Assembly (NCBI RefSeq): GCF_044647545.1
Contig: NZ_CP172818.1
Strand: one strand, 5' to 3'
Length of the DNA: 64,000 nucleotides
Source of the DNA: Escherichia coli
GTDB lineage: Bacteria; Pseudomonadota; Gammaproteobacteria; Enterobacterales; Enterobacteriaceae
Both the position numbers and the translations under genes were made by a program. Shown one piece after another: positions 2,912 through 53,036 of this stretch. Each line of letters starts with the position of its first letter. Position 1 is the stretch's first letter. Below the pieces are notes generated by a model. That model was given only the letters and a program-made list of their open reading frames with translations, was not told the DNA's origin and did no database searches.

Positions 2912-4260
2912 GTCTGCTGCAATTCAGTGGCCTTTTTGTTGTCTGGCTGCTCTGCACGCTGTTTATTGCCACGCTGACCTGGTTTGAGTTTCGCCGTGTG
3001 CGCTTTAACTTCAATGTCTTCTTTTCATTGCTGTTTTTGCTCACCTTTTTCTTCGGCTTTCCGCTGACCAGCGTGCTGGTATTTCGCTTTGATGTTGGTG
3101 TCGCGCCGCCAGAAATCTTGTTGCAGGCGTTGCTTTCTGCAGGCTGCTTCTACGCGGTTTACTATGTCACCTACAAAACCCGTCTACGCAAACGCGTTGC
3201 TGATGCACCGCGCCGTCCGCTGTTTACCATGAACCGCGTGGAGACCAATCTCACGTGGGTGATCCTGATGGGCATCGCGCTGGTAAGCGTCGGCATCTTC
3301 TTCATGCACAACGGCTTTTTGCTGTTCCGGCTTAATTCTTACAGTCAGATCTTTTCCAGCGAAGTCTCCGGCGTGGCATTAAAACGCTTCTTTTACTTTT
3401 TCATCCCGGCGATGCTGGTGGTTTATTTTCTGCGCCAGGACAGCAAAGCGTGGCTGTTTTTCCTCGTCAGCACGGTCGCCTTTGGCTTGCTGACTTATAT
3501 GATTGTCGGCGGCACTCGCGCCAATATCATCATCGCATTCGCTATCTTCCTGTTTATTGGCATTATTCGCGGCTGGATTTCGTTGTGGATGCTGGCGGCG
3601 GCGGGTGTGCTGGGGATTGTGGGCATGTTCTGGCTGGCGTTAAAACGCTATGGAATGAATGTGAGCGGCGATGAAGCGTTCTATACGTTTCTCTATCTCA
3701 CTCGCGACACCTTTTCACCGTGGGAGAATCTGGCGTTGCTGTTGCAGAACTACGACAACATCGACTTCCAGGGCCTGGCTCCCATTGTCCGCGATTTCTA
3801 TGTCTTTATCCCTTCCTGGCTGTGGCCGGGTCGCCCGAGTATGGTGCTGAACTCAGCCAACTACTTTACCTGGGAAGTGCTGAATAACCACTCCGGACTG
3901 GCGATCTCGCCTACGCTTATAGGCTCACTGGTGGTGATGGGCGGCGCGTTGTTCATCCCGCTCGGGGCGATTGTGGTTGGCCTGATCATCAAATGGTTCG
4001 ACTGGCTGTATGAGCTGGGCAACCGCGAGACTAATCGCTATAAGGCTGCGATATTACACAGTTTCTGCTTCGGGGCGATCTTCAATATGATCGTGCTGGC
4101 GCGTGAAGGGCTGGATTCGTTTGTCTCACGCGTGGTCTTTTTTATCGTGGTCTTCGGCGCATGTCTGATGATCGCAAAACTGTTGTACTGGCTTTTTGAA
4201 AGCGCCGGACTCATTCATAAACGTACAAAATCATCGCTCCGGACGCAGATTGAAGGATAA
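2908..4260 (+). CDS. wzyE: ECA polysaccharide polymerase, polytopic membrane protein
   Basis: 450-aa highly hydrophobic ORF, overlaps wecF stop; operon context. Confidence 0.9.
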
Positions 4261-4262
4261 CA

Positions 4263-5003
4263 ATGAATAACACCACCACGGCACCGACCTATACACTGCG
4301 TGGCTTACAGTTGATTGGTTGGCGTGATATGCAGCACGCCCTCGATTATCTGTTTGCTGACGGGCAGCTTAAGCAGGGAACGCTGGTTGCCATTAATGCC
4401 GAAAAAATGCTGACCATTGAAGATAACGCCGAGGTCCGGGAGTTAATTAACGCTGCCGAATTTAAATATGCGGATGGCATCAGCGTTGTACGTTCAGTAC
4501 GTAAAAAGTACCCGCAGGCGCAGGTTTCCCGCGTTGCCGGGGCCGATCTCTGGGAAGAGCTGATGGCGCGCGCAGGCAAAGAAGGGACACCGGTATTTCT
4601 TGTGGGCGGTAAACCTGAAGTGCTGGCGCAAACTGAAGCTAAACTGCGCAACCAGTGGAATGTGAATATCGTTGGCAGTCAGGATGGTTATTTTAAACCC
4701 GAGCAGCGTCAGGCGCTGTTTGAACGCATTCATGCCAGCGGCGCGCAAATCGTCACTGTTGCGATGGGATCGCCAAAGCAGGAGATCTTCATGCGCGACT
4801 GCCGTCTGGTGCATCCGGATGCGCTGTATATGGGCGTTGGCGGGACTTACGATGTTTTCACCGGTCACGTAAAACGTGCACCGAAAATCTGGCAAACGCT
4901 GGGACTGGAGTGGCTCTACCGCCTGCTTTCGCAGCCGAGCCGCATTAAGCGTCAGCTTCGTTTGCTGCGTTATTTACGCTGGCACTACACCGGCAACCTC
5001 TGA
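4263..5003 (+). CDS. wecG: UDP-ManNAcA:lipid I transferase
   Basis: 246-aa ORF starting 3 nt after wzyE stop; last gene of the wec operon. Confidence 0.9.
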
Positions 5004-8656: not shown

Positions 8657-10312
8657 TTAATCAGATTTAATCTGCGCGCGTGGTGGATATTTTTTCAGGA
8701 TCTCCATATACGCGTGCATTTCGGTCTGTAGCGGTACACCCATTGGGATATGGCGCACGCCGATGGAGTCGCTTTCCTGCGGATCGGTGTACAGGTTAAA
8801 CACCGACGATCCCGCCGTTTGCATTACTGTGCCGGTGAATCCACCCTGATACCCGCTCTGTGTATACGCGTACGGTTGCTGGATCAGGACGTGATACTTG
8901 AACTCATCCATACGCACAGCAGAAAGTTTACCGTTGAGGAAGTAGTGCTCGGCCTTACGGTTAGACTGACCATTTGTTCCCAGGAAGAAAGATGTCTGGT
9001 CCACACCATCGATAAAGGTGGTTTTCGGTACTAAATTCGCTACTTTCGCCCCAGGATGCCCCGCCAGATCCAGCGCCGTAGGGAAGAGATCCGCCAGATC
9101 GACAATGCCGTCAGATTTACGCGGTTGGATCATGCCTTTCCAGTAAACGAAGGTTGGCACACGAACGCCGCCTTCCCATGTAGAACCTTTCGCACCGCGG
9201 AACGGCGTGCGACCGTGCGGCGGAACTTCGGCTTCCGGACCGTTATCAGAGGTGAACACAATCAGCGTGTTATCAAGCTGACCGTTTTTCTCCAGTGCTT
9301 TATACAGATTGGCGAAGATATCGTTCATCTCCACCATGCAGTCGCCGTAAGAGGTGCGCGCCGGAGAGCTACCCGCATATTTCGCATTTGGGTAGTTATC
9401 GAAGTGACAGCCACGAGTGCCGTAATAGAGGAAGAAAGGCTTATCGCTCTTCGCCATCTTGTCGAGGAACTTAACGCCATATTCCATCCAGCGTTGATCC
9501 AGGTCTTCCATATATTTCGGCGTAATGTCGGCAATGGCTTCCTGTTCACCGCCGCGCACGGCATGAACGTCATCTTTGCTGAACGGCAGTTTTTGGATGT
9601 ATTCAGAACGATCCGGGCTCAGGGCGACTTCCGGGTTGACGTGAACATCACGCCATTCGGTATACATATCGGATACCGAGTTAAAGCCGCGGAAATCATC
9701 AAAGCCAACGTTCTGCGGCTGCGACTCTTTGTTTTCCCCCATATGCCATTTCCCGATGGCCTGAGTGACGTAGCCCTGATCGTGCAGCAACTGCGGCAGA
9801 GTGGTTAACCCTTGCAGACCGCCCGGTTGCCCGTACATTGGCGGCATCAGAATGCCGTGGTGGATGGAGTATTGTCCGGTAAGAATCGTGGCGCGGGTTG
9901 GGGAAGAACTCGGTTGAGAATACGCCGAAGTTAAAATCAGCCCCTGGCTGGCAACGGCGTCGATATCTGGTGTAGGGTTACCCACCGCCACGCCGCCGCC
10001 GTTAAAGCCAACATCCATCCAGCCCACATCATCCAGCAAGAAAACAACCACGTTCGGTTTCTTACCGGTTTTTTTCTCAAGTTCTGCCAGCTTCTGCTGG
10101 GTTTCTTTGTCTTGTGCAGGATGCTGCATCACCGGCATCATGTTGTCGGCAATAGTGGTCGCCGGTTTAACCAGATACTGGTTTGGGTGATCGTATCCGG
10201 CAAAGCCTTTGCGTGCGGTGGCGGTTGACGGGGTATCTGCTGCGTTGGCCATGAGTGGAAGAGCGGCGGCGACAGCTACAACAAGAAGTTTGGGTGAAAA
10301 CGAAAATTCCAT
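8657..10312 (-). CDS. aslA: arylsulfatase-family protein with signal peptide
   Basis: 551-aa ORF; N-terminal signal peptide; sulfatase-type sequence. Confidence 0.9.
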
Positions 10313-10721
10313 GCAAAATGCTCCGGTTTCATGTCGTCAAAATGTTGACGTAATTAAGCATTGATAATTGAGATCCCTCTCCCTGACAGGATGATTGCAT
10401 AAATAATAGTGATGAAAATAAATTATTTATTTATCCAGAAAATGAATTGGAAAATCAGGAGAGCGTTTTCAATCCTACCTCTGGCGCAGGTGATATGTAA
10501 GGCGGTGATGTTATATCGCGTTGATTATTGATGCTGTTTTTAGTTTTAACGGCAATTAATATATATGTTATTAATTGAATGACTTTTATTATTCATTATA
10601 TATATATGTAGAATCGTGCGCAGGAGAAATATTCACTCAGGAAGCAAAGAGGATTACAGAATTATCTCATAACAAGTGTTAAGGGATGTTATTTCCCGGT
10701 TCTCTGTGGCATAATAAACGA

Positions 10722-10928: not shown

Positions 10929-11028
10929 ATGACCGGATAAAGAACTGGTTACGTCGCTCCTTCATCTTCTTTAACTCTTACAAAACCCAAAGAATTCTTC
11001 ACCTTTCATTTCCCTATTCTTTTTCTCC

Positions 11029-11094
<66 letters not shown>

Positions 11095-11105
11095 ATCAAA
11101 AAAAA

Positions 11106-22465: not shown

Positions 22466-24628
22466 ATGGACGTTTCTTACCTGCTCGACAGCCTTAATGA
22501 CAAACAGCGCGAAGCGGTAGCCGCGCCACGCAGCAACCTTCTGGTGCTGGCGGGCGCGGGCAGTGGTAAGACGCGCGTACTGGTGCATCGTATCGCCTGG
22601 CTGATGAGCGTGGAAAACTGCTCGCCATACTCGATTATGGCGGTAACGTTTACCAACAAAGCGGCGGCGGAGATGCGTCATCGTATCGGGCAGCTGATGG
22701 GCACCAGCCAGGGCGGCATGTGGGTCGGCACCTTCCACGGGCTGGCGCACCGTCTGCTGCGTGCGCACCATATGGACGCCAATCTGCCGCAGGATTTTCA
22801 GATCCTCGACAGCGAGGACCAGCTACGCCTGCTCAAACGCCTAATCAAGGCGATGAACCTCGACGAGAAGCAGTGGCCGCCGCGCCAGGCAATGTGGTAC
22901 ATCAACAGCCAGAAAGATGAAGGCCTGCGTCCACATCATATTCAAAGCTACGGTAATCCGGTGGAGCAGACCTGGCAGAAGGTGTATCAGGCGTATCAGG
23001 AAGCGTGTGACCGCGCGGGCCTGGTGGACTTCGCCGAGCTGCTGCTACGTGCTCACGAGTTGTGGCTTAACAAACCGCATATCCTTCAGCACTATCGCGA
23101 ACGGTTTACCAATATCCTGGTGGACGAATTCCAGGATACCAACAACATTCAGTATGCGTGGATCCGCCTGCTGGCGGGCGATACCGGCAAAGTGATGATC
23201 GTTGGCGATGACGATCAGTCAATCTACGGCTGGCGCGGAGCGCAGGTGGAGAATATTCAGCGTTTCCTCAATGATTTCCCCGGTGCTGAAACTATCCGTC
23301 TGGAGCAGAACTACCGCTCTACCAGCAATATTCTGAGCGCCGCGAACGCTCTGATTGAAAACAACAACGGGCGTTTGGGTAAAAAACTGTGGACCGATGG
23401 CGCGGATGGTGAGCCTATTTCCCTCTATTGCGCTTTTAACGAACTCGATGAAGCGCGTTTTGTGGTTAACCGTATCAAAACCTGGCAGGACAACGGCGGG
23501 GCGCTTGCCGAGTGCGCCATTCTCTACCGCAGCAACGCCCAGTCGCGTGTGCTGGAAGAAGCACTGTTACAGGCAAGTATGCCGTACCGTATTTACGGCG
23601 GGATGCGCTTCTTCGAACGCCAGGAAATCAAAGACGCGCTCTCGTATCTGCGCCTGATTGCCAACCGCAACGACGACGCGGCCTTTGAGCGTGTGGTTAA
23701 TACGCCAACGCGGGGTATTGGTGACCGGACGCTGGACGTGGTACGTCAGACATCGCGTGATCGCCAGTTAACACTCTGGCAGGCATGTCGTGAACTGTTG
23801 CAGGAAAAAGCCCTCGCCGGACGTGCTGCCAGTGCCTTACAGCGGTTTATGGAACTGATCGACGCCTTAGCGCAGGAAACTGCCGATATGCCGCTGCATG
23901 TACAGACTGACCGGGTAATTAAAGACTCCGGCTTGCGCACCATGTACGAGCAGGAGAAGGGCGAAAAAGGTCAGACGCGTATCGAAAACCTGGAGGAACT
24001 GGTGACGGCAACGCGCCAGTTCAGCTACAACGAAGAAGACGAAGATTTAATGCCGCTGCAGGCATTCCTCTCCCATGCGGCGCTGGAAGCGGGCGAGGGG
24101 CAGGCGGATACCTGGCAGGACGCGGTGCAGTTGATGACGCTACACTCGGCGAAAGGCCTGGAGTTCCCGCAGGTGTTTATCGTTGGTATGGAAGAGGGCA
24201 TGTTCCCAAGCCAGATGTCGCTGGATGAAGGCGGACGTCTGGAAGAAGAACGCCGTCTGGCCTACGTTGGCGTAACCCGCGCGATGCAGAAACTGACGCT
24301 GACCTACGCGGAAACTCGCCGTCTGTATGGCAAAGAGGTTTACCATCGCCCGTCGCGCTTTATCGGTGAGTTGCCGGAAGAGTGTGTGGAAGAGGTGCGC
24401 CTGCGCGCTACGGTAAGCCGCCCGGTCAGCCATCAACGGATGGGTACGCCGATGGTCGAGAACGACAGCGGCTACAAGCTCGGCCAGCGCGTACGCCACG
24501 CTAAGTTTGGTGAAGGCACCATCGTCAATATGGAAGGCAGCGGCGAGCATAGCCGTTTGCAGGTGGCATTCCAGGGCCAGGGTATTAAATGGCTGGTGGC
24601 GGCTTATGCCCGACTGGAGACGGTGTAA
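22466..24628 (+). CDS. uvrD: DNA helicase II (UvrD)
   Basis: 720 aa from ATG at 22466 (MDVSYLLDSLNDKQREAVAAPRSNLLVLAGAGSGKTRVLV...); Walker A GAGSGKT; the ORF-track start at 22280 is too far upstream. Confidence 0.95.
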   Translation: MDVSYLLDSLNDKQREAVAAPRSNLLVLAGAGSGKTRVLVHRIAWLMSVENCSPYSIMAVTFTNKAAAEMRHRIGQLMGTSQGGMWVGTFHGLAHRLLRAHHMDANLPQDFQILDSEDQLRLLKRLIKAMNLDEKQWPPRQAMWYINSQKDEGLRPHHIQSYGNPVEQTWQKVYQAYQEACDRAGLVDFAELLLRAHELWLNKPHILQHYRERFTNILVDEFQDTNNIQYAWIRLLAGDTGKVMIVGDDDQSIYGWRGAQVENIQRFLNDFPGAETIRLEQNYRSTSNILSAANALIENNNGRLGKKLWTDGADGEPISLYCAFNELDEARFVVNRIKTWQDNGGALAECAILYRSNAQSRVLEEALLQASMPYRIYGGMRFFERQEIKDALSYLRLIANRNDDAAFERVVNTPTRGIGDRTLDVVRQTSRDRQLTLWQACRELLQEKALAGRAASALQRFMELIDALAQETADMPLHVQTDRVIKDSGLRTMYEQEKGEKGQTRIENLEELVTATRQFSYNEEDEDLMPLQAFLSHAALEAGEGQADTWQDAVQLMTLHSAKGLEFPQVFIVGMEEGMFPSQMSLDEGGRLEEERRLAYVGVTRAMQKLTLTYAETRRLYGKEVYHRPSRFIGELPEECVEEVRLRATVSRPVSHQRMGTPMVENDSGYKLGQRVRHAKFGEGTIVNMEGSGEHSRLQVAFQGQGIKWLVAAYARLETV

Positions 24629-24699
24629 TTTACAACTCCGTTGCAGGATGCGGTGCGCCACACCGCATTCGGCATCAGCACCTTACTTAGCGCACTTCT

Positions 24700-35559: not shown

Positions 35560-36360
35560 ATGTATCAGGTTGTTGCGTCTGATTTAGATGGCACGTTACT
35601 TTCTCCCGACCATACGTTATCCCCTTACGCCAAAGAAACTCTGAAGCTGCTCACCGCGCGCGGCATCAACTTTGTGTTTGCGACCGGTCGTCACCACGTT
35701 GATGTGGGGCAAATTCGCGATAATCTGGAGATTAAGTCTTACATGATTACCTCCAATGGCGCGCGCGTTCACGATCTGGATGGCAATCTGATTTTTGCTC
35801 ATAACCTGGATCGCGACATTGCCAGCGATCTGTTTGGCGTAGTCAACGACAATCCGGACATCATTACTAATGTTTATCGCGACGACGAATGGTTTATGAA
35901 TCGCCATCGCCCGGAAGAGATGCGCTTTTTTAAAGAAGCGGTGTTCAAATATGCGCTGTATGAGCCGGGATTACTGGAGCCGGAAGGCGTCAGCAAAGTG
36001 TTCTTCACCTGCGATTCCCATGAAAAACTTCTGCCACTGGAGCAAGCGATTAACGCTCGCTGGGGCGATCGCGTCAATGTCAGTTTCTCTACCTTAACCT
36101 GCCTGGAAGTCATGGCGGGCGGCGTGTCAAAAGGCCATGCGCTGGAAGCAGTGGCGAAGAAACTGGGCTACAGCCTGAAGGATTGTATTGCGTTTGGTGA
36201 CGGGATGAACGATGCCGAAATGCTGTCGATGGCGGGGAAAGGCTGCATTATGGGCAGTGCGCACCAGCGTCTGAAAGATCTGCATCCGGAACTGGAAGTG
36301 ATTGGTACTAACGCCGAGGACGCAGTGCCGCATTATCTGCGTAAGCTCTATTTATCGTAA
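35560..36360 (+). CDS. yigL: HAD-family sugar phosphatase (Cof-like)
   Basis: 266 aa from ATG 35560 (MYQVVASDLDGTLL...); HAD motif I DLDGT. Confidence 0.9.
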   Translation: MYQVVASDLDGTLLSPDHTLSPYAKETLKLLTARGINFVFATGRHHVDVGQIRDNLEIKSYMITSNGARVHDLDGNLIFAHNLDRDIASDLFGVVNDNPDIITNVYRDDEWFMNRHRPEEMRFFKEAVFKYALYEPGLLEPEGVSKVFFTCDSHEKLLPLEQAINARWGDRVNVSFSTLTCLEVMAGGVSKGHALEAVAKKLGYSLKDCIAFGDGMNDAEMLSMAGKGCIMGSAHQRLKDLHPELEVIGTNAEDAVPHYLRKLYLS

Positions 36361-36435
36361 TCGTTCTTTATTTGGTCAGTTGTCAACCTGATACTTCGCT
36401 ACAATGGATACTCGTTAATCAAAGAGTTTTCCATT

Positions 36436-37335
36436 GTGGCGCTACTTATCATCACCACGATTCTGTGGGCCTTCTCCTTTAGCTTTTATGGCGAGTACCT
36501 TGCGGGGCACGTCGATAGCTATTTTGCGGTTCTGGTGCGCGTTGGCCTGGCGGCACTCGTTTTTCTGCCGTTTCTGCGTACCCGTGGCAATAGCCTGAAA
36601 ACGGTCGGCCTGTATATGCTGGTGGGCGCGATGCAGCTCGGTGTGATGTATATGCTGAGTTTCCGCGCCTATCTCTACCTGACGGTCTCCGAACTGTTGC
36701 TGTTCACCGTACTGACGCCGCTCTACATCACGCTGATTTATGACATCATGAGTAAGCGCCGTCTGCGCTGGGGCTATGCTTTTAGCGCCTTGCTGGCGGT
36801 GATTGGTGCCGGGATTATTCGCTATGATCAGGTCACCGACCATTTCTGGACTGGCTTATTGCTGGTGCAACTCTCCAATATCACTTTTGCCATCGGCATG
36901 GTGGGTTACAAACGTCTGATGGAAACTCGCCCGATGCCGCAGCATAACGCCTTTGCGTGGTTCTATCTTGGCGCGTTCCTGGTGGCAGTGATTGCATGGT
37001 TCTTGCTGGGAAATGCACAGAAAATGCCGCAAACCACGTTGCAATGGGGCATTCTGGTGTTTCTTGGCGTGGTGGCTTCCGGGATTGGCTACTTTATGTG
37101 GAACTACGGCGCGACGCAGGTGGACGCCGGAACGCTGGGCATTATGAATAATATGCACGTTCCGGCAGGGCTGCTGGTAAACCTGGCTATCTGGCACCAA
37201 CAGCCGCACTGGCCAACGTTTATTACAGGCGCGCTGGTGATCCTGGCCTCACTGTGGGTGCATCGTAAGTGGGTCGCTCCGCGCTCTTCACAAACGGCAG
37301 ATGATCGCAGGCGTGATTGCGCGCTGAACGAATAA
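36436..37335 (+). CDS. yigM: DMT-family transporter (biotin uptake BioP/YigM)
   Basis: 299-aa hydrophobic ORF; 3' end overlaps the convergent metR 3' end by about 113 nt. Confidence 0.85.
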
Positions 37336-38176
37336 ATGCTTCTGTAATCGGCTGACGCTGCTCTCCATCGCGCACGGCGGCGTACAGTCGGCTCCACAAG
37401 CCTTCGCCCAGGGTTTTGGTCACCACCAGACCCTGGCGCTCAAAACTCTCAACTACCCAATGCGGCAGCGCGGCAATACCCATCCGCGCGGCAACCATCT
37501 GAATCAACAATAAGGTGTTATCGACGCTTTTCAGTGACGGGCTGACGCCTGCCGGCTGAAGAAAATGCCGCCAGACATCCAGTCGACTACGCTGCACCGG
37601 ATAAATCAACAGCGTCTCGCTGGCGAGATCTTCCGGTGTAATTCGCGTTTTCGCCGCCAGTGGATGGTCAGGTGCTAACACCAGACGCACTTCATAGTCG
37701 AACATCGGCGAATAATGCAGGCCACTGCGCGGCAGAATATCGGACGTCATCACCAGATCCAGCTCGCCCTGTTGCAACGCAGGCTGCGGATCAAACGTTA
37801 CGCCCGATTTAAAATCCATCTCCACCTGCGGCCAGTTCTTATGGAAATTTTCTAATGCGGGCGTCAGCCACTGAATACAGCTATGGCACTCAATGGCAAT
37901 GCGCAGGCGCGTCTGCTGCGGTTCATTGCAGGCTTGCAGTGCCTGGCTAATTTGCGGCAGCACCTGATTTGCCAGTTGCAACAGGATTTCTCCCTGCGGT
38001 GTAAAGCGAAGCGGCTGGCTTTTACGCACAAATAGCCGGAAGCCAAGGCGTTGTTCCAGATCGCTAAACTGGTGAGACAGGGCGGATTGCGTTTGATGCA
38101 ACGTCGCCGCAGCGGCTGCGAGTGAGCCGCAGTTCCGCAACGCTTGTAGCGTTTTCAGGTGTTTTACTTCGATCAT
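37223..38176 (-). CDS. metR: LysR-type transcriptional activator MetR
   Basis: 317-aa ORF with N-terminal HTH ([45 protein letters not shown]); divergent from metE. Confidence 0.95.
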
Positions 38177-38293
38177 GAAAGTCCTTCACTTCGGCATGAA
38201 TAATTTGCGCTTGAGGAATATACAGTAACCGCCAATTATGGATGTGTAAACATCTGGACGGCTAAATACTAAAAATTCCATAAGGGGCATATA

Positions 38294-40555
38294 ATGACAA
38301 TTCTTAATCACACCCTCGGTTTCCCTCGCGTTGGCCTGCGTCGCGAGCTGAAAAAAGCGCAAGAGAGTTATTGGGCGGGGAACTCCACGCGTGAAGAACT
38401 GCTGGCGGTAGGGCGTGAACTGCGTGCTCGTCACTGGGATCAACAAAAGCAAGCAGGTATCGACCTGCTGCCGGTGGGTGATTTTGCCTGGTACGATCAT
38501 GTCCTGACCACCAGCCTGCTGCTGGGTAACGTTCCGGCGCGTCACCAGAACAAAGATGGTTCGGTAGATATCGACACCCTGTTCCGTATTGGTCGTGGAC
38601 GTGCGCCGACTGGCGAACCTGCGGCGGCGGCGGAAATGACCAAATGGTTTAACACCAACTATCACTACATGGTGCCGGAGTTCGTTAAAGGCCAACAGTT
38701 CAAACTGACCTGGACGCAGCTGCTGGAGGAAGTGGACGAGGCGCTGGCGCTGGGCCACAAGGTGAAACCTGTGCTGCTGGGGCCGGTTACCTGGCTGTGG
38801 CTGGGTAAAGTGAAAGGTGAACAGTTTGATCGCCTGAGCCTGCTGAACGACATTCTGCCGGTTTATCAGCAAGTGCTGGCAGAACTGGCAAAACGCGGCA
38901 TCGAGTGGGTACAGATCGACGAACCCGCGCTGGTACTGGAACTACCGCAGGCGTGGCTGGACGCCTATAAACCCGCTTACGACGCGCTCCAGGGGCAGGT
39001 GAAACTGCTGCTGACTACTTATTTTGAAGGCGTAACACCAAATCTCGACACGATTACTGCGCTGCCTGTTCAGGGGCTGCATGTGGACCTTGTACATGGT
39101 AAAGATGACGTTGCTGAACTGCACAAGCGCCTGCCTTCTGACTGGCTACTGTCTGTGGGTCTGATCAATGGTCGTAACGTCTGGCGCGCCGATCTTACCG
39201 AGAAATATGCGCAAATTAAGGACATTGTCGGCAAACGTGATTTGTGGGTGGCATCTTCCTGCTCACTGCTGCACAGCCCCATCGACCTGAGCGTGGAAAC
39301 GCGTCTTGATGCAGAAGTGAAAAGCTGGTTTGCCTTCGCCCTACAAAAATGCCATGAACTGGCACTGCTGCGCGATGCGCTGAACAGTGGTGATACGGCG
39401 GCTCTGGCAGAGTGGAGCGCTCCGATTCAGGCGCGTCGTCACTCTACTCGTGTACATAATCCGGCAGTAGAAAAGCGTCTGGCGGCGATCACCGCTCAGG
39501 ACAGTCAGCGTGCGAATGTCTATGAAGTGCGTGCTGAAGCCCAGCGTGCGCGTTTTAAACTGCCCGCGTGGCCGACCACCACGATTGGTTCCTTCCCGCA
39601 AACTACGGAGATTCGTACCCTGCGTCTGGATTTTAAAAAGGGTAATCTCGACGCCAATAACTACCGCACGGGCATTGCGGAACATATCAAGCAGGCCATT
39701 GTTGAGCAGGAACGTTTGGGACTGGATGTGCTGGTACATGGCGAGGCCGAGCGTAATGACATGGTGGAATACTTTGGCGAGCATCTGGATGGCTTTGTCT
39801 TTACGCAAAACGGTTGGGTACAGAGCTACGGTTCCCGCTGCGTGAAGCCACCGATTGTTATTGGTGACGTTAGCCGCCCGGCACCGATTACTGTGGAGTG
39901 GGCAAAATATGCGCAATCCCTGACTGATAAACCGGTGAAAGGGATGTTGACCGGCCCGGTGACTATTCTCTGCTGGTCGTTCCCGCGTGAAGATGTCAGC
40001 CGTGAAACCATCGCCAAACAAATTGCGCTGGCGCTGCGTGATGAAGTGGCCGATCTGGAAGCCGCTGGAATTGGCATCATCCAGATTGACGAACCGGCTC
40101 TGCGCGAAGGTTTACCGCTGCGTCGCAGCGACTGGGATGTGTATCTCCAGTGGGGCGTAGAGGCCTTCCGTATCAACGCCGCCGTGGCGAAAGATGACAC
40201 ACAAATCCACACTCACATGTGTTATTGCGAGTTCAACGACATCATGGATTCCATTGCGGCGCTGGACGCAGACGTCATCACCATCGAAACCTCGCGTTCC
40301 GACATGGAGTTGCTGGAGTCGTTTGAAGAGTTTGATTATCCAAATGAAATCGGTCCTGGCGTCTATGACATTCACTCGCCAAACGTACCGAGCGTGGAAT
40401 GGATTGAAGCCTTGCTGAAGAAAGCGGCAAAACGCATTCCGGCAGAGCGTCTGTGGGTCAACCCGGACTGTGGCCTGAAAACGCGCGGCTGGCCAGAAAC
40501 CCGCGCGGCACTGGCGAACATGGTGCAGGCGGCGCAGAATTTGCGTCGGGGGTAA
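38294..40555 (+). CDS. metE: cobalamin-independent methionine synthase
   Basis: 753-aa [33 protein letters not shown]...; divergent from metR. Confidence 0.95.
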
Positions 40556-40565
40556 ATCCCAAACT

Positions 40566-40594
40566 GGGTGGCAAACACCACCCGGTCTTTTCTC
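40566..40594 (+). terminator. terminator hairpin between convergent metE and ysgA
   Basis: gggtgg-caaaca-ccaccc stem-loop followed by ggtcttttctc. Confidence 0.5.
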
Positions 40595-40595
40595 A

Positions 40596-41411
40596 TTACA
40601 GCGACTTCTTCCCACCATACTGTGTAAACCATTCCAACATTCGCTGCCAGCCGTCTTTCGCAGACTCGGCATGATAGCTCGGACGATAATCGGCGTTGAA
40701 CGCATGCCCGGCATCCGGGTAGACGATAATCTCTGCTTTCGCGTTTGCTGCCCGCAGCGCCTGGCGCATCGTTTCAACGCTCTCCTGCGGAATGCTGTTA
40801 TCCTGGCCGCCATATAAGCCGATAACCGGCGCGTTAAGATCGGTTGCGATATCAACAGGCTGTTTCGGTGAATTCAGCGTCTTATCGCCGGTTAATTTGC
40901 CGTACCATGCCACCGCTGCTTTCAGTTGTGGATTATGCGCAGCATACAGCCAGGTGATGCGCCCACCCCAGCAAAATCCGGTGATCATTAAGCGATGAAC
41001 ATCGCCGCCGTTGCGTGACGCCCAACTGGCGACATGATCGAGATCGGCCAGCACCTGCGAGTCAGGCACTTTTGCTACCAGACCGCTAAGCAGCGTAGGG
41101 ATATCGGCAAAATCATTCGGATCGCCTTCGCGGAAGTAAAGTTCAGGTGCGATAGCCAGATACCCCTCCAGCGCCAGACGGCGACAAATATCGCGGATAT
41201 GTTCATGCACGCCAAAAATTTCCTGCACTACAATGACCACTGGCAGTGGGCCATCGCTTTGCTTTGGTCTGGCATGGTAAGCAGGCATGTTATCCCCTTG
41301 TGAAGGGATAGAGGTGAAGCCCGCCACAATCGCGTCGTCCGGAGTCTGAACGATGGTCGAAGCGAGAGGCGATGCAGCAGGTGCAAATCCAGATTGTTGT
41401 GTTGTTGCCAT
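40596..41411 (-). CDS. ysgA: dienelactone-hydrolase-family protein
   Basis: 271 aa from ATG at 41411 ([16 protein letters not shown]...). Confidence 0.85.
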
Positions 41412-41531
41412 GGTATTCTCCGTACCCTTATAAAAATGTTGCGCAATGTTAACTATAGTCAGCATGCAACAAATCACATTGCCTGAATCGGCTCATCTTT
41501 TATGCAGTCCTGCAGAATGAAGAGTGATTTA

Positions 41532-41547
41532 TGTGATTTGCATCACT
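41532..41547 (+). promoter_or_regulatory. CRP binding site in the udp promoter
   Basis: tgtga-tttgca-tcact fits TGTGA-N6-TCACA. Confidence 0.6.
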
Positions 41548-41583
41548 TTTGGCGGGTAAATTTATGCAACGCATTTTCGTCAT

Positions 41584-41599
41584 GGTGATGAGTATCACG
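41584..41599 (+). promoter_or_regulatory. second CRP-like site in the udp promoter
   Basis: ggtga-tgagta-tcacg. Confidence 0.5.
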
Positions 41600-41672
41600 A
41601 AAAAATGTTAAACCCTTCGGTAAAGTGTCTTTTTGCTTCTTCTGACTAAACCGATTCACAGAGGAGTTGTAT

Positions 41673-42515
41673 ATGTCCAAGTCTGATGTTTTTCATCTCG
41701 GCCTCACTAAAAACGATTTACAAGGGGCTACGCTTGCCATCGTCCCTGGCGACCCGGATCGTGTGGAAAAGATCGCCGCGCTGATGGATAAGCCGGTTAA
41801 GCTGGCATCTCATCGCGAATTCACCACCTGGCGTGCAGAGCTGGATGGTAAACCTGTTATCGTCTGCTCTACCGGTATCGGCGGCCCGTCTACCTCTATT
41901 GCTGTTGAAGAGCTGGCACAGCTGGGCATTCGCACCTTCCTGCGTATCGGTACAACGGGCGCTATTCAGCCGCATATTAATGTGGGTGATGTCCTGGTTA
42001 CCACGGCGTCTGTTCGTCTGGACGGCGCGAGCCTGCACTTCGCACCGCTGGAATTCCCGGCTGTCGCTGATTTCGAATGTACGACTGCGCTGGTTGAAGC
42101 GGCGAAGTCAATTGGTGCCACCACTCACGTTGGTGTGACGGCTTCTTCTGATACCTTCTACCCGGGTCAGGAACGTTACGATACTTACTCTGGTCGCGTA
42201 GTTCGTCACTTTAAAGGTTCTATGGAAGAGTGGCAGGCGATGGGCGTAATGAACTATGAAATGGAATCTGCAACCCTGCTGACCATGTGTGCAAGTCAGG
42301 GCCTGCGTGCCGGTATGGTAGCGGGGGTTATCGTTAACCGCACCCAGCAAGAGATCCCGAATGCTGAGACGATGAAACAAACCGAAAGCCATGCGGTGAA
42401 AATCGTGGTGGAAGCGGCGCGTCGTCTGCTGAAATTCTCTTTCTCCTGTCAGCCCTGGGTGAAGGCATCCCATCTTCATCTCCAGGATGCATTCACCGAA
42501 ATCGAATCGGGATAA
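41673..42515 (+). CDS. udp: uridine phosphorylase with a 27-codon C-terminal extension in this sequence
   Basis: [40 protein letters not shown]...; codons 1-253 end in ...VEAARRLL as recalled for K-12 Udp, but codon 254 is AAA and the frame continues to 42515. Confidence 0.85.
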
Positions 42516-43700
42516 AACATCAAATAACTCCCCTCATAAATCTGGAAATCTAATTTTTTTTCAACTACTGCCCATTTCGCATTTGCCGGTAACCTATCAC
42601 ATGCATACCCTGATGGATCGCGTTTTCAGGCCGGTTCCATCGACACACCTGAATTTTTTCTCTTCGCCACGCATCACTTCGGCATTTCACCTTCTTTAAT
42701 CACCCAGCATGATTCAGCATTTCTCTCTGTGATAACACGTCAACTGCTTCGCCAGACCCTCGAATGACCGCAAGGTAAATAACTGCTGTTGCCACCCTTC
42801 GCACTCCGACATCCGCAAGCCATACCGCATGGGTTTTCGACCATCCCGCAGACACGTAAAACGTATCTGGAAACTCCTCACGTTTCTCCTGGAGGTAATT
42901 TCATGATCCCCAGAATTCACGTTTTTCTTTGATCTTGATTCGCCAAAACGCCATGCCCGAACGATGACTTCCCCATCCAGGATTAAATCTAAGTTCTGCA
43001 TTATCTTTCCTTTAATCATTTTATTTATCTTTCGGACGTCTTACCCCACCCATTCACGGATATCTCTTCTGCACAGGATTTGACGAAGTGCCACTTCAAC
43101 CCCACGACATATACTGTACTCGACAGAAATACCGCCACAATTTCATCCCGCTTGTAAACCCTCAACGCAACGGATATCGGCTCTTTCCTTCCAATCAAAA
43201 CAAAACCACTCCAAACGACGCATGTTCTAATAAAGCGCCCATTTTGTTTCATCACCACAGGCTTTACCGCCACTTTCTTCTTTCGTTAGATCAATCCTCC
43301 GATCCGTGATTCCATCATCGATCCTCTGACGCATTTCCACCCCCTGACTTTGATCTTCTCCAGATACAGCACTTCTCGCCTTCAACGATCCCCAGATGCA
43401 CGGTTCCAGTTAACCAACGTTCAAAACCGCAATTTTACACGAGTCTTTCCATCTCTCACTGAATCGATCATTTCACCCATTTACCCTCGTGACACGCAGT
43501 AACTTTTCCACAAACTGACTAAACATGTTTCTCCTCGTCCTGAACTCCCGATAATTTTAGTCACACGTTATAAACACATTAAGAACCGCCATCCACGTAA
43601 TAACGTTTCCGCCTCGTGTTGAAGAGGTTTCTCCCACTCACTTCTCTATGATATTCTGAATTTCCACATAATGACGTGGGGAAAAAGTGATATATCCCAC
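42516..43700. other. G-depleted (+ strand), ORF-free tract of about 1.2 kb between udp and rmuC
   Basis: about 13% G against about 30% C in sampled 60-nt lines; only short ORFs without recognisable protein features; right boundary approximate. Confidence 0.8.
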
Positions 43701-43842
43701 AATATAAACCCATCTCATATTGTGGATAAATAATGAAAATTAACATTTTTGCGTAGCGCCTCGCAGGAAACTTCTTTCAAACTGGACGTTTGTACAGCAC
43801 AATTCTATTTTGTGCGGGTAAGTTGTTGCGTCAGGAGGCGTT

Positions 43843-45270
43843 GTGGATTTCTCAATCATGGTTTACGCAGTTATTGCATTGGTGGGTGTGGCAATTGGCT
43901 GGCTGTTTGCCAGTTATCAACATGCGCAGCAAAAAGCCGAGCAATTAGCTGAACGTGAAGAGATGGTCGCGGAGTTAAGCGCGGCAAAACAACAAATTAC
44001 TCAAAGCGAGCACTGGCGCGCTGAGTGCGAGTTACTCAATAACGAAGTGCGCAGCCTGCAAAGTATTAACACCTCTCTGGAGGCCGATCTGCGTGAAGTA
44101 ACCACGCGGATGGAAGCTGCACAGCAACATGCTGACGATAAAATTCGCCAGATGATTAACAGCGAGCAGCGCCTCAGTGAGCAGTTTGAAAACCTCGCCA
44201 ACCGTATTTTTGAGCACAGCAATCGCCGGGTTGATGAGCAAAACCGTCAGAGCCTGAACAGCCTGTTGTCGCCGCTACGTGAACAACTGGACGGTTTCCG
44301 CCGTCAGGTCCAGGACAGCTTTGGTAAAGAAGCCCAAGAACGTCATACCCTGACTCACGAAATCCGCAACCTCCAGCAACTCAACGCCCAGATGGCCCAG
44401 GAAGCGATCAACCTGACGCGTGCGCTGAAAGGCGACAATAAAACCCAGGGCAACTGGGGCGAGGTAGTATTGACGCGGGTGCTGGAGGCTTCCGGTCTGC
44501 GTGAAGGGTATGAATATGAAACCCAGGTCAGCATCGAAAATGACGCCCGCTCGCGGATGCAGCCGGATGTCATCGTGCGGTTGCCGCAGGGAAAAGATGT
44601 GGTGATCGACGCCAAAATGACGCTGGTCGCCTATGAACGCTATTTCAACGCTGAAGATGACTACACACGTGAAAGCGCGCTACAGGAGCATATCGCGTCG
44701 GTGCGTAACCACATCCGCTTGCTTGGACGCAAAGATTATCAACAGTTGCCGGGGCTGCGAACCCTGGATTACGTGCTGATGTTTATCCCCGTTGAGCCAG
44801 CATTTTTATTGGCACTGGATCGCCAGCCGGAGCTGATCACCGAAGCGTTGAAAAACAATATCATGCTGGTTAGCCCGACTACGCTGCTGGTGGCGCTGCG
44901 CACTATCGCCAACCTGTGGCGTTATGAGCATCAAAGCCGCAACGCCCAGCAAATCGCCGATCGTGCCAGCAAGCTGTACGACAAGATGCGTTTGTTCATC
45001 GATGACATGTCCGCGATTGGTCAAAGTCTCGACAAAGCGCAGGATAACTATCGCCAGGCAATGAAAAAACTCTCTTCAGGTCGCGGAAATGTGCTGGCGC
45101 AGGCAGAAGCGTTTCGCGGTTTAGGGGTAGAAATTAAACGCGAGATTAATCCGGATTTGGCTGAACAGGCGGTGAGCCAGGATGAAGAGTATCGACTTCG
45201 GTCGGTTCCGGAGCAACCGAATGATGAAGCTTATCAACGCGATGATGAATATAATCAGCAGTCGCGCTAG
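43843..45270 (+). CDS. rmuC: DNA recombination protein RmuC
   Basis: 475-aa ORF from GTG 43843 (MDFSIMVYAVIALVGVAIGWLFA...), coiled-coil rich. Confidence 0.9.
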   Translation: MDFSIMVYAVIALVGVAIGWLFASYQHAQQKAEQLAEREEMVAELSAAKQQITQSEHWRAECELLNNEVRSLQSINTSLEADLREVTTRMEAAQQHADDKIRQMINSEQRLSEQFENLANRIFEHSNRRVDEQNRQSLNSLLSPLREQLDGFRRQVQDSFGKEAQERHTLTHEIRNLQQLNAQMAQEAINLTRALKGDNKTQGNWGEVVLTRVLEASGLREGYEYETQVSIENDARSRMQPDVIVRLPQGKDVVIDAKMTLVAYERYFNAEDDYTRESALQEHIASVRNHIRLLGRKDYQQLPGLRTLDYVLMFIPVEPAFLLALDRQPELITEALKNNIMLVSPTTLLVALRTIANLWRYEHQSRNAQQIADRASKLYDKMRLFIDDMSAIGQSLDKAQDNYRQAMKKLSSGRGNVLAQAEAFRGLGVEIKREINPDLAEQAVSQDEEYRLRSVPEQPNDEAYQRDDEYNQQSR

Positions 45271-45364
45271 CCCATTGGGGGTAGTTAAGCCGGGTAGAAA
45301 TCTAGGGCATCGACGCCCAATCTGTTACACTTCTGGAACAATTTTTTGATGAGCAGGCATTGAG

Positions 45365-46120
45365 ATGGTGGATAAGTCACAAGAAACGACGCACTTTGGT
45401 TTTCAGACCGTCGCGAAGGAACAAAAAGCGGATATGGTCGCCCACGTTTTCCATTCCGTGGCATCAAAATACGATGTCATGAATGATTTGATGTCATTCG
45501 GTATTCATCGTTTGTGGAAGCGATTCACGATTGATTGCAGCGGCGTACGCCGTGGGCAGACCGTGCTGGATCTGGCTGGTGGCACCGGCGACCTGACAGC
45601 GAAATTCTCCCGCCTGGTCGGAGAAACTGGCAAAGTGGTCCTTGCTGATATCAATGAATCCATGCTCAAAATGGGACGCGAGAAGCTGCGTAATATCGGT
45701 GTGATTGGCAACGTTGAGTATGTTCAAGCGAACGCTGAGGCGCTGCCGTTCCCGGATAACACCTTTGATTGCATCACCATTTCGTTTGGTCTGCGTAACG
45801 TCACCGACAAAGATAAAGCACTGCGTTCAATGTATCGCGTGCTGAAACCCGGCGGCCGCCTGCTGGTGCTTGAGTTCTCGAAGCCAATTATCGAGCCGCT
45901 GAGCAAAGCCTATGATGCATACTCCTTCCATGTGCTGCCGCGTATTGGCTCACTGGTCGCGAACGACGCCGACAGCTACCGTTATCTGGCAGAATCCATC
46001 CGTATGCATCCCGATCAGGATACCCTGAAAGCCATGATGCAGGATGCCGGATTCGAAAGTGTCGACTACTACAATCTGACGGCAGGGGTTGTGGCGTTGC
46101 ATCGTGGTTATAAGTTCTGA
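45365..46120 (+). CDS. ubiE: demethylmenaquinone / 2-methoxy-6-polyprenyl-1,4-benzoquinol C-methyltransferase
   Basis: 251-aa ORF with SAM-binding motif LDLAGGTGD. Confidence 0.95.
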
Positions 46121-46133
46121 CAGGAGACCGGAA

Positions 46134-48376
<2,243 letters not shown>

Positions 48377-48454
48377 TTTTTTCATCGCTCAAGGCGGGCC
48401 GTGTAACGTATAATGCGGCCTTGTTTAATCATCATCTACCACAGAGGAACATGT

Positions 48455-48724
48455 ATGGGTGGTATCAGTATTTGGCAGTTATTGATTATTGCCGTCATCG
48501 TTGTACTGCTTTTTGGCACCAAAAAGCTCGGCTCCATCGGTTCCGATCTTGGTGCGTCGATCAAAGGCTTTAAAAAAGCAATGAGCGATGATGAACCAAA
48601 GCAGGATAAAACCAGTCAGGATGCTGATTTTACTGCGAAAACTATCGCCGATAAGCAGGCGGATACGAATCAGGAACAGGCTAAAACAGAAGACGCGAAG
48701 CGCCACGATAAAGAGCAGGTGTAA
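48455..48724 (+). CDS. tatA: twin-arginine translocase subunit TatA
   Basis: 89 aa from ATG 48455 ([27 protein letters not shown]...). Confidence 0.95.
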
Positions 48725-48727
48725 TCC

Positions 48728-49243
48728 GTGTTTGATATCGGTTTTAGCGAACTGCTATTGGTATTCATCATCGGCCTCGTCGTTCTGGGGCCGCAACGAC
48801 TGCCTGTGGCGGTAAAAACGGTCGCGGGCTGGATTCGCGCGTTGCGTTCACTGGCGACAACGGTGCAGAACGAACTGACCCAGGAGTTAAAACTCCAGGA
48901 GTTTCAGGACAGTCTGAAAAAGGTTGAAAAGGCGAGCCTCACTAACCTGACACCCGAACTGAAAGCGTCGATGGATGAATTACGCCAGGCCGCGGAGTCG
49001 ATGAAGCGTTCCTACGTTGCAAACGATCCTGAAAAGGCGAGCGATGAAGCGCACACCATCCATAACCCGGTGGTGAAAGACAATGAAGCTGCGCATGAAG
49101 GCGTAACGCCTGCCGCTGCACAAACGCAGGCCAGTTCGCCGGAACAGAAGCCAGAAACCACGCCAGAGCCGGTGGTAAAACCTGCTGCGGACGCTGAACC
49201 GAAAACCGCTGCACCTTCCCCTTCGTCGAGTGATAAACCGTAA
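48728..49243 (+). CDS. tatB: twin-arginine translocase subunit TatB
   Basis: 171-aa ORF from GTG 48728 ([26 protein letters not shown]...). Confidence 0.95.
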
Positions 49244-49245
49244 AC

Positions 49246-50022
49246 ATGTCTGTAGAAGATACTCAACCGCTTATCACGCATCTGATTGAGCTGCGTAAGC
49301 GTCTGCTGAACTGCATTATCGCGGTGATCGTGATATTCCTGTGTCTGGTCTATTTCGCCAATGACATCTATCACCTGGTATCCGCGCCATTGATCAAGCA
49401 GTTGCCGCAAGGTTCAACGATGATCGCCACCGACGTGGCCTCGCCGTTCTTTACGCCGATCAAGCTGACCTTTATGGTGTCGCTGATTCTGTCAGCGCCG
49501 GTGATTCTCTATCAGGTGTGGGCGTTTATCGCCCCAGCGCTGTATAAGCATGAACGTCGCCTGGTGGTGCCGCTGCTGGTTTCCAGCTCTCTGTTGTTTT
49601 ATATCGGCATGGCGTTCGCCTACTTTGTGGTCTTTCCGCTGGCATTTGGCTTCCTTGCCAATACCGCGCCGGAAGGGGTACAGGTATCCACCGACATCGC
49701 CAGCTATTTAAGCTTCGTTATGGCGCTGTTTATGGCGTTTGGTGTCTCCTTTGAAGTGCCTGTGGCAATTGTGCTGCTGTGCTGGATGGGGATTACCTCG
49801 CCAGAAGACTTACGCAAAAAACGCCCGTATGTGCTGGTTGGTGCATTCGTTGTCGGGATGTTGCTGACGCCGCCGGATGTCTTCTCGCAAACGCTGCTGG
49901 CGATCCCGATGTACTGCCTGTTTGAAATCGGTGTCTTCTTCTCTCGCTTTTACGTTGGTAAGGGTCGAAACCGGGAAGAGGAAAACGACGCTGAAGCAGA
50001 AAGCGAAAAAACTGAAGAATAA
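49246..50022 (+). CDS. tatC: twin-arginine translocase subunit TatC
   Basis: 258-aa 6-TM ORF. Confidence 0.95.
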
Positions 50023-50063
50023 ATTCAACCGCCCGTCAGGGCGGTTGTCATATGGAGTACAGG

Positions 50064-51376
<1,313 letters not shown>

Positions 51377-51497
51377 TTACGCTAAGTTAATTATATTCCC
51401 CGGTATGCGTTATACCGTCAGAGTTCACGCTAATTTAACAAATTTACAGCATCGCAAAGATGAACGCCGTATAATGGGCGCAGATTAAGAGGCTACA

Positions 51498-52991
51498 ATG
51501 GACGCCATGAAATATAACGATTTACGCGACTTCTTGACGCTGCTTGAACAGCAGGGTGAGCTAAAACGTATCACGCTCCCGGTGGATCCGCACCTGGAAA
51601 TCACTGAAATTGCTGACCGCACTTTGCGTGCCGGTGGGCCTGCGCTGTTGTTCGAAAACCCTAAAGGCTACTCAATGCCGGTGCTGTGCAACCTGTTCGG
51701 TACGCCAAAGCGCGTGGCGATGGGCATGGGGCAGGAAGATGTTTCGGCGCTGCGTGAAGTTGGTAAATTATTGGCGTTTCTGAAAGAGCCGGAGCCGCCA
51801 AAAGGTTTCCGCGACCTGTTTGATAAACTGCCGCAGTTTAAGCAAGTATTGAATATGCCGACAAAGCGACTGCGTGGTGCGCCCTGCCAACAAAAAATCG
51901 TCTCTGGCGATGACGTCGATCTCAATCGCATTCCCATTATGACCTGTTGGCCGGAAGATGCCGCGCCGCTGATTACCTGGGGGCTGACCGTAACGCGCGG
52001 TCCGCATAAAGAGCGTCAGAATCTGGGCATTTATCGCCAGCAGCTGATTGGTAAAAACAAACTGATTATGCGCTGGCTGTCGCATCGCGGTGGCGCGCTG
52101 GATTATCAGGAGTGGTGTGCGGCGCATCCGGGCGAACGTTTCCCGGTTTCTGTGGCGCTGGGTGCCGATCCCGCCACGATTCTCGGCGCAGTCACCCCCG
52201 TTCCGGATACGCTTTCAGAGTATGCGTTTGCCGGATTGCTGCGCGGCACCAAGACCGAAGTGGTGAAGTGTATCTCCAATGACCTGGAAGTGCCCGCCAG
52301 TGCGGAGATTGTGCTGGAAGGGTATATCGAACAAGGCGAAACTGCGCCGGAAGGGCCGTATGGCGACCACACCGGTTACTATAACGAAGTCGATAGTTTC
52401 CCGGTATTCACCGTGACGCATATTACCCAGCGTGAAGATGCGATTTACCATTCCACCTATACCGGGCGTCCGCCGGATGAACCTGCGGTGCTGGGTGTCG
52501 CACTGAACGAAGTGTTTGTGCCGATTCTGCAAAAACAGTTCCCGGAAATTGTCGATTTTTACCTGCCGCCGGAAGGATGTTCTTATCGTCTGGCGGTAGT
52601 GACGATCAAAAAACAGTACGCCGGACACGCGAAGCGCGTCATGATGGGCGTCTGGTCGTTTTTACGCCAGTTTATGTACACTAAGTTTGTGATCGTTTGC
52701 GATGATGACGTCAACGCACGCGACTGGAACGATGTGATTTGGGCGATTACCACCCGTATGGACCCGGCGCGGGACACGGTGTTGGTCGAAAATACGCCTA
52801 TTGATTATCTGGATTTTGCCTCGCCTGTGTCCGGGCTGGGTTCAAAAATGGGGCTGGATGCCACGAATAAATGGCCGGGGGAAACCCAGCGTGAATGGGG
52901 ACGTCCCATCAAAAAAGATCCAGATGTTGTCGCGCATATTGACGCCATCTGGGATGAACTGGCTATTTTTAACAACGGTAAAAGCGCCTGA
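51498..52991 (+). CDS. ubiD: 3-octaprenyl-4-hydroxybenzoate decarboxylase
   Basis: 497-aa [28 protein letters not shown]... Confidence 0.95.
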
Positions 52992-53036
52992 TGCGCGTTT
53001 GTTTTGCCCTATTTATCGATCCGACAGAGAAAGCGC

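Follow-up and report, generated by a model that had tools for sequence, protein, structure and literature searches.

A 27-residue extension of uridine phosphorylase in one Escherichia coli genome record, very probably an assembly or sequencing artefact

Does the udp gene of Escherichia coli occur in a form that has lost its stop codon and encodes a long C-terminal tail? This question is raised by contig NZ_CP172818.1 (RefSeq assembly GCF_044647545.1), of which a stretch of 64,000 nucleotides, hereafter called the window, was analysed. The udp open reading frame (ORF) of the window covers positions 41673..42515 on the + strand, starts with an ATG at 41673 and encodes a Udp protein of 280 amino acids (aa). 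Leu253, encoded by a CTG with its last base at 42431, is followed by AAA as codon 254 (42432-42434), and the frame continues through a tail of 27 residues (KFSFSC...IESG) up to a TAA stop at 42513-42515. A sequence-only reading of this DNA had reported the AAA at codon 254 and the 27-residue frame ending at that TAA, both of which are present in the sequence and in the ORF list. It had also taken E. coli Udp to be 253 aa long, which is right for K-12, since the K-12 gene (b3831) has 762 nt and 253 codons and ends with CTGCTG TAA. The parts of the frame are as follows.

41673..42434, + strand: genuine udp coding part, 254 codons from Met1 to Lys254 (nucleotide identity to CUVET20-PYO4)
42432..42434, + strand: AAA codon 254 (Lys), a natural allele (CTGCTG AAA TAA in locus L001; about 1,434 genomes; at least 1000 contigs)
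42432..42515, + strand: 27-codon tail and TAA (ORF translation)
42435..42435, + strand: T, first base of the natural TAA and last base common to the island-type allele, with the junction next to it (L001 alignment)

Up to the AAA codon, the gene displayed every sign of an ordinary udp. Not one nucleotide difference was found over all 762 coding nt between positions 41673..42434 and udp of strain CUVET20-PYO4 (4225-4986 of its locus, L001), and residues 1-254 are identical to the 254-aa product of that strain. Over residues 1-253, identity to the E. coli uridine phosphorylase of known structure (253 aa; PDB 1k3f and others) was 100%, and residues 20-250 matched the Pfam family PNP_UDP_1 (PF01048) with 138.2 bits, for a gathering cut-off of 25.1. 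No Pfam match was found for the 27-residue tail. The unusual element is the sequence downstream of udp, rather than the ORF span of the tail: a run of 27 codons to the next stop is unremarkable, all the more so in G-poor sequence, in which TAG and TGA are impossible.

The natural 3' ends of udp were surveyed among 5,426 complete E. coli genomes, in which three layouts of the udp-rmuC spacing were found. In the K-12-type layout, udp ends with CTGCTG TAA TTCTCTTCTCCTGTC TGAAGGCCGACGCGTTCGGCCTTTTGT, a terminator hairpin lies within this sequence and rmuC begins 140 nt past udp. In the island-type layout, of which one island-bearing genome was read (L001), the end is CTGCTG AAA TAA AAAACGCTCCCC..., the island sequence 3' of AAA being AAATAAAAAACGC... 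The udp-rmuC island itself has a length of 5.6 kb, is carried on the minus strand by approximately 1,430-1,456 of the 5,426 complete genomes (about 27%), and contains genes for TctA, TctB, a Bug-family binding protein, a dgoA-like aldolase, a dgoK-like kinase and an IclR regulator. The third layout, rare and recombinant-looking, was that of strain Z1323CEC0014 (locus L010), with an udp end reading CTGCTG AAA TTC TCT TCT CCT GTC TGA and a Udp of 259 aa found in 3 contigs. The flanks of this udp (L010 1695-2474, NZ_CP148426.1; protein end ...LLKFSSPV) look island-type and its core K-12-type.

The Udp of E. coli is thus not always 253 aa long: in approximately a quarter of the complete genomes it has 254 aa and a C-terminal Lys (WP_000045178.1, in at least 1000 contigs), as the udp-rmuC island has its left boundary at the stop codon. 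The udp end of the window was matched with at least 99% identity by about 1,434 complete genomes; these matches can extend only through ...CTGCTGAAAT, beyond which the sequence of the window is found in no genome. As the udp of the window is identical to the island-type allele through AAA-T, its AAA is an ordinary Lys254 codon. In other words, AAA is a common and already known natural allele and not a destroyed stop; the stop that was lost is the TAA after AAA. A single T-to-A mutation of a K-12-type TAA, which had been proposed as one origin of the read-through, would indeed produce an allele that exists in Z1323CEC0014 (the 259-aa form of the 3 contigs), but it adds only 6 residues, and a 27-residue tail requires in addition an extra T and the inserted tract. 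Moreover, the udp of the window is only 98% identical to that of Z1323CEC0014, whereas it shares every nucleotide with the island-type allele, where a TAA comes after the AAA. The proposal is contradicted by this identity, and such a mutation is an extremely improbable explanation of the tail.

Compared with the 254-aa variant, the Udp of the window adds 26 residues past Lys254, which are encoded by corrupted antisense sequence. It shares with the Udp of Z1323CEC0014 (WP_283656407.1) an AAA at codon 254 that is followed by the island-less downstream motif TTCTCTTCTCCTGTC. In Z1323CEC0014, 6 extra residues lead to a TGA, beyond which stands the normal terminator hairpin; in the window, unlike in this strain, one T has been added and 1.3 kb of inserted sequence takes the place of the 28-nt hairpin region. 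The segments that lie between udp and the intact right neighbour are listed below.

42436..42450, + strand: TCTCTTTCTCCTGTC, the island-less udp downstream motif with one extra T (K-12 alignment to 42450)
42451..43003 (approximate), - strand: corrupted 2-dehydro-3-deoxygalactonokinase gene, N-terminal two thirds (L001, about 9028-9670)
43022..43636 (approximate), - strand: corrupted IclR-family regulator gene (L001 9694-10461)
43637..43745, no strand assigned: right end of the corrupted tract, IclR-rmuC intergenic, where the loss of G fades to zero
43843..45270, + strand: rmuC, intact right neighbour, 475-aa ORF (ORF list)

The alignment of the window to L001 stops at L001 4987, with 100% identity through AAA-T. 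The 15 nt that follow have TCTCTTCTCCTGTC as their counterpart in both K-12 and Z1323CEC0014, so that TCTCTT(T)CTCCTGTC at the junction is island-less sequence; the extra T, which was found in none of the 5,426 complete genomes, changes the frame so that the TGA which ends the Z1323CEC0014 gene is no longer read. This island-less motif showed no significant similarity to the intact island in a shuffle test, and a 26-mer spanning the junction had 0 matches in species-representative genomes. An island-type AAAT, an island-less 15-mer and the interior of the island are therefore joined end to end, and the junction puts mutually exclusive alleles side by side. The earlier suggestion that a fusion tail arose from a junction located at the stop codon was essentially correct: a junction does make the tail, but the stop concerned lies one codon later than the sequence-only reading had it, and the TAA is cut after its first base. 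One part of this junction is possible in nature, which speaks against an artefact, as Z1323CEC0014 naturally joins AAA to island-less sequence.

The window is collinear with L001 (approximately 9028-10630) between 42451 and about 43745; this segment begins midway through the kinase gene and extends across the IclR gene to the region upstream of rmuC. The order of the island is kept in this part (N-terminal part of the kinase, IclR gene, IclR-rmuC spacer), while the udp-proximal 4 kb or so (L001 4988 to about 9010) are missing from the window and neither the kinase nor the IclR gene retains an ORF. No ORF longer than 101 aa was found on either strand of the corrupted tract, for an IclR protein of 255 aa in L001. 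The corrupted kinase copy runs antisense to udp and is the source of most codons of the tail, and no udp terminator was found in the tract downstream of udp. Beyond it, from about 43746 to 53000 and with rmuC inside, the window matched L001 with essentially no differences.

Divergence of the tract from island-bearing genomes amounted to 16-22% and was concentrated on a single base of a single strand. With L001 as reference, 218 of the 434 G's of the + strand were deleted and 17 substituted (235/434 affected, 54%), and among the A, C and T bases 44 were deleted and 13 substituted (57/1,201). The difference between G and non-G losses was significant (Fisher p = 2e-105), as was that between G and C (p = 1e-63), and the latter implies that only one strand was affected. 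Whole runs showed the same bias, being lost in 156 of 313 cases for G, 10 of 302 for C, 2 of 254 for A and 15 of 285 for T. Flow-based sequencing was considered in this respect; at the level of runs, G loss was only mildly more all-or-none than independent loss would be. Sequence context also mattered: G's were mostly kept before an A (p = 2e-11), with 23 of 25 kept in C-G-A and 12 of 58 in T-G-C.

Along the tract, the loss of G was roughly flat, at about 40-75%, and fell to zero within the final 150 nt or so on the rmuC side, where successive 100-nt reference bins from L001 10301-10400 on had 20/27, 12/25, 4/21 and 0/26 G's lost or changed. On both sides the flanks were free of errors, with 0 differences in udp and 100% identity to L001 from about 43746 into rmuC. 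Since these flanks show zero substitutions, a 16-22% divergence that is restricted to one base and one strand does not represent ordinary decay. The spectrum of substitutions and indels downstream of udp was not the ordinary one that a real allele should display; it was specific to base, strand and context, between error-free flanks, as is typical of a technical error. On the strength of these sequence comparisons, the extended Udp is very probably an assembly or sequencing artefact confined to one genome record and not a real variant of the protein.

A natural history of the spacer was also considered and rejected. The K-12-type spacer could be an ancient, more extensively deleted descendant of a tract like that of the window, and the tract would then be a natural intermediate. 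Against this, the spacer lacks significant similarity to the intact island (shuffle test), and the flanks of the tract in the window are identical to those of strains with an intact island.

The 15 nt after AAAT bear on another explanation. They fit the island-less allele, with one indel, better than they fit the interior of the kinase gene, for which four G events would be needed, two of them being substitutions to K-12 bases. Such a stretch is not predicted by a simple deletion and therefore argues against a real loss of approximately 4 kb between the udp stop and the kinase interior, in which the fusion tail would be true and only the G-depleted sequence and the exact 27 residues erroneous. 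A short, imperfect similarity between the would-be breakpoints (GTCTGCTGA at the udp end, GTCTGATGA at L001 9002) could support illegitimate recombination, and other presence/absence differences of islands in the window have clean junctions. However, no clean udp-to-kinase-interior junction, submitted as a synthetic query, was found in any of the 5,426 complete genomes, and the backbone of the window is 99.9% identical to that of a strain in which the island is intact. A real deletion under the damaged sequence is, in our opinion, unlikely.

The corrupted udp-rmuC tract was not the only one of its kind, since two further low-quality tracts with the same G-first signature were found in the same record. 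The first of them (24860-25655) lies inside a gene of the SAM hydrolase/halogenase family located between uvrD and yigE and absent in K-12, the insert relative to K-12 covering 24673-25655. The sequence is perfect up to about 24700; errors affected 6 of 59 G's and 1 of 222 other bases in 24675-24974, then 8 of 14 G's and 4 of 61 others in the next 75 nt. Within the tract, 51 of the 75 substituted G's took the identity of a neighbouring base, and the sequence decays into homopolymer runs of C, A and T before an abrupt return to 100% identity at 25655. The span was roughly preserved, with 1,501 nt in the window (24400-25900) and 1,514 nt in FDAARGOS_497. The second (10961-11098) is found between aslA and hemY, where CUVET20-PYO4 has a hypothetical gene of 591 nt: a faithful left edge is followed immediately by G dropouts and then by some 55 A's, and 137 nt replace 572 nt.

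Tracts 24860-25655 and 42436-43745 sit at breaks of the K-12 alignment, where the lineage has extra DNA; tract 10961-11098 replaces a gene of CUVET20-PYO4 and is known from the comparison with this strain only. Outside the three tracts, about 30 differences from CUVET20-PYO4 were counted over approximately 43,000 positions of the compared span, 9424-53000 (99.9% identity). Four further CUVET20-PYO4 islands are absent from the window within this span, among them those given below (CUVET20-PYO4 comparison).

27739: absent island with DUF943/YPO3983 genes, after corA
33732-33783: absent island with an Rpn-family gene, between rhtC and rhtB
40551-40604: absent island of 8.6 kb, LysR regulator through cysteine hydrolase, between metE and ysgA

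At these sites the window is collinear with K-12. None of the complete E. coli genomes was both collinear and more than 97% identical to the window across metE-udp (36000-42431), and the contig has a size of 4.50 Mb, compared with 5.2 Mb for CUVET20-PYO4. The island-less junctions at rhtC-rhtB and corA look like clean natural alleles, so the strain may truly lack some of the islands.

The other two tracts also weigh on the possibility that the whole udp-rmuC tract is biological, namely a remnant of the island that underwent a localised, strand-specific deletion of guanines in vivo, with a 280-aa Udp that is actually expressed. The loss closely follows base, strand and context, and the tract is located downstream on the non-template strand of udp with no terminator in between, both of which would suit such a process. 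Yet the same G-first signature leads to non-biological homopolymer garbage at the two other sites of the window, the flanks have zero changes, and the sequence was seen once in all collections searched. To our knowledge, no mutational process strips a 1.3-kb stretch of half the G's on one strand and spares its flanks entirely. Such a deletion in vivo is very unlikely. Still less credit can be given to the more specific idea that damaged or abasic G's of the non-template strand were skipped during translesion synthesis past a terminator-less udp, which would make the 280-aa fusion real.

Recurrence in independently sequenced genomes, as expected of a real allele, was not observed for the extended protein: the 254-aa form occurs in at least 1000 contigs, the 259-aa form in 3 and the 280-aa form in 1 (of 4,499,902 bp), the last being the only one among approximately 15 billion proteins. 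The interior of the tract had no match above about 84% identity among the 5,426 complete E. coli genomes, and the 1,456 island-bearing ones matched it at only 78-82% identity. A 34-mer specific to the tract gave 0 matches in 241 million metagenome records. The idea that the tail might affect the assembly or stability of the Udp hexamer thus finds no support, as the tract that encodes it bears the signature of technical corruption and is present in no other genome. The tail is best classed as not being a real feature.

The 90%-identity protein cluster that holds the 280-aa Udp also holds many 485-aa RmuC proteins of Enterobacter and a 253-aa Udp of Hafnia. Two unrelated families were probably chained into this cluster by an udp-rmuC fusion or read-through product.

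For the artefact, a technical route may be inferred from the features of the sequence. The sequenced strain would be a close relative of the ST648-like E. coli that carry the udp-rmuC island and the 254-aa Udp, and an island-less layout may have served to build or to order the record, DNA outside this layout being lost or patched in. Uncorrected, low-quality reads of a single orientation, in which the signal for G's of the + strand fails first, are the putative source of the patch. A correct udp ending in AAA-T would then be followed by an island-less 15-mer originating from a reference or a primer, and the patch would be joined where the kinase interior (GCTCTTGTGCTGCTGTC) resembles this 15-mer. 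A misprimed gap-closing PCR product, or an assembly or forced alignment guided by an island-less reference, are both candidate routes. The rmuC-proximal 1.6 kb of the island would thereby be rendered with about half of its G's uncalled and the other 4 kb dropped. Such a join would leave only the T of the real TAA, the added T would skip the TGA of Z1323CEC0014, and the result would be 27 meaningless codons antisense to the mangled kinase, since a G-poor sequence can stop only at TAA.

Comparison with known types of error is consistent with such a patch. Base- and strand-specific errors, decay into homopolymers and an abrupt return to perfect sequence are shared with patches of uncorrected reads and with chimeric joins. 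Two of the three tracts lie in stretches that K-12 lacks, and the junction combines two alleles, as is also the case in assemblies that were guided by a reference or closed across gaps. The tract differs, however, from a single capillary read, being cleaner and longer than the usual tail of one Sanger read, with a span of 1.6 kb and non-G bases that are about 97% correct. The idea that a K-12 MG1655 reference was copied into the junctions finds no support in this form, as several positions of the metE-ysgA junction depart from K-12.

The main value of these observations is that of a warning, for at least three corrupted patches are present within 64 kb and accessory islands of the closest relative are apparently absent. 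Because of these patches and missing islands, ORFs, pseudogenes, compositional anomalies and apparent deletions of this record are unreliable wherever it departs from a K-12-like layout.

Two smaller differences were recorded in the window. Over 161 nt, the metE-ysgA spacer (40551-40604) departs 8 times from its closest counterpart in the 5,426 genomes, that of Z1323CEC0014 (95%); these differences cluster at the junction, several of them in and around the terminator hairpin, and the spacer may represent either another low-quality patch or a rare natural allele. Additionally, hemX (12371) has two copies of a GGTGCA hexamer (12 nt) fewer than CUVET20-PYO4, which could be due to natural copy-number variation or to the collapse of a repeat.
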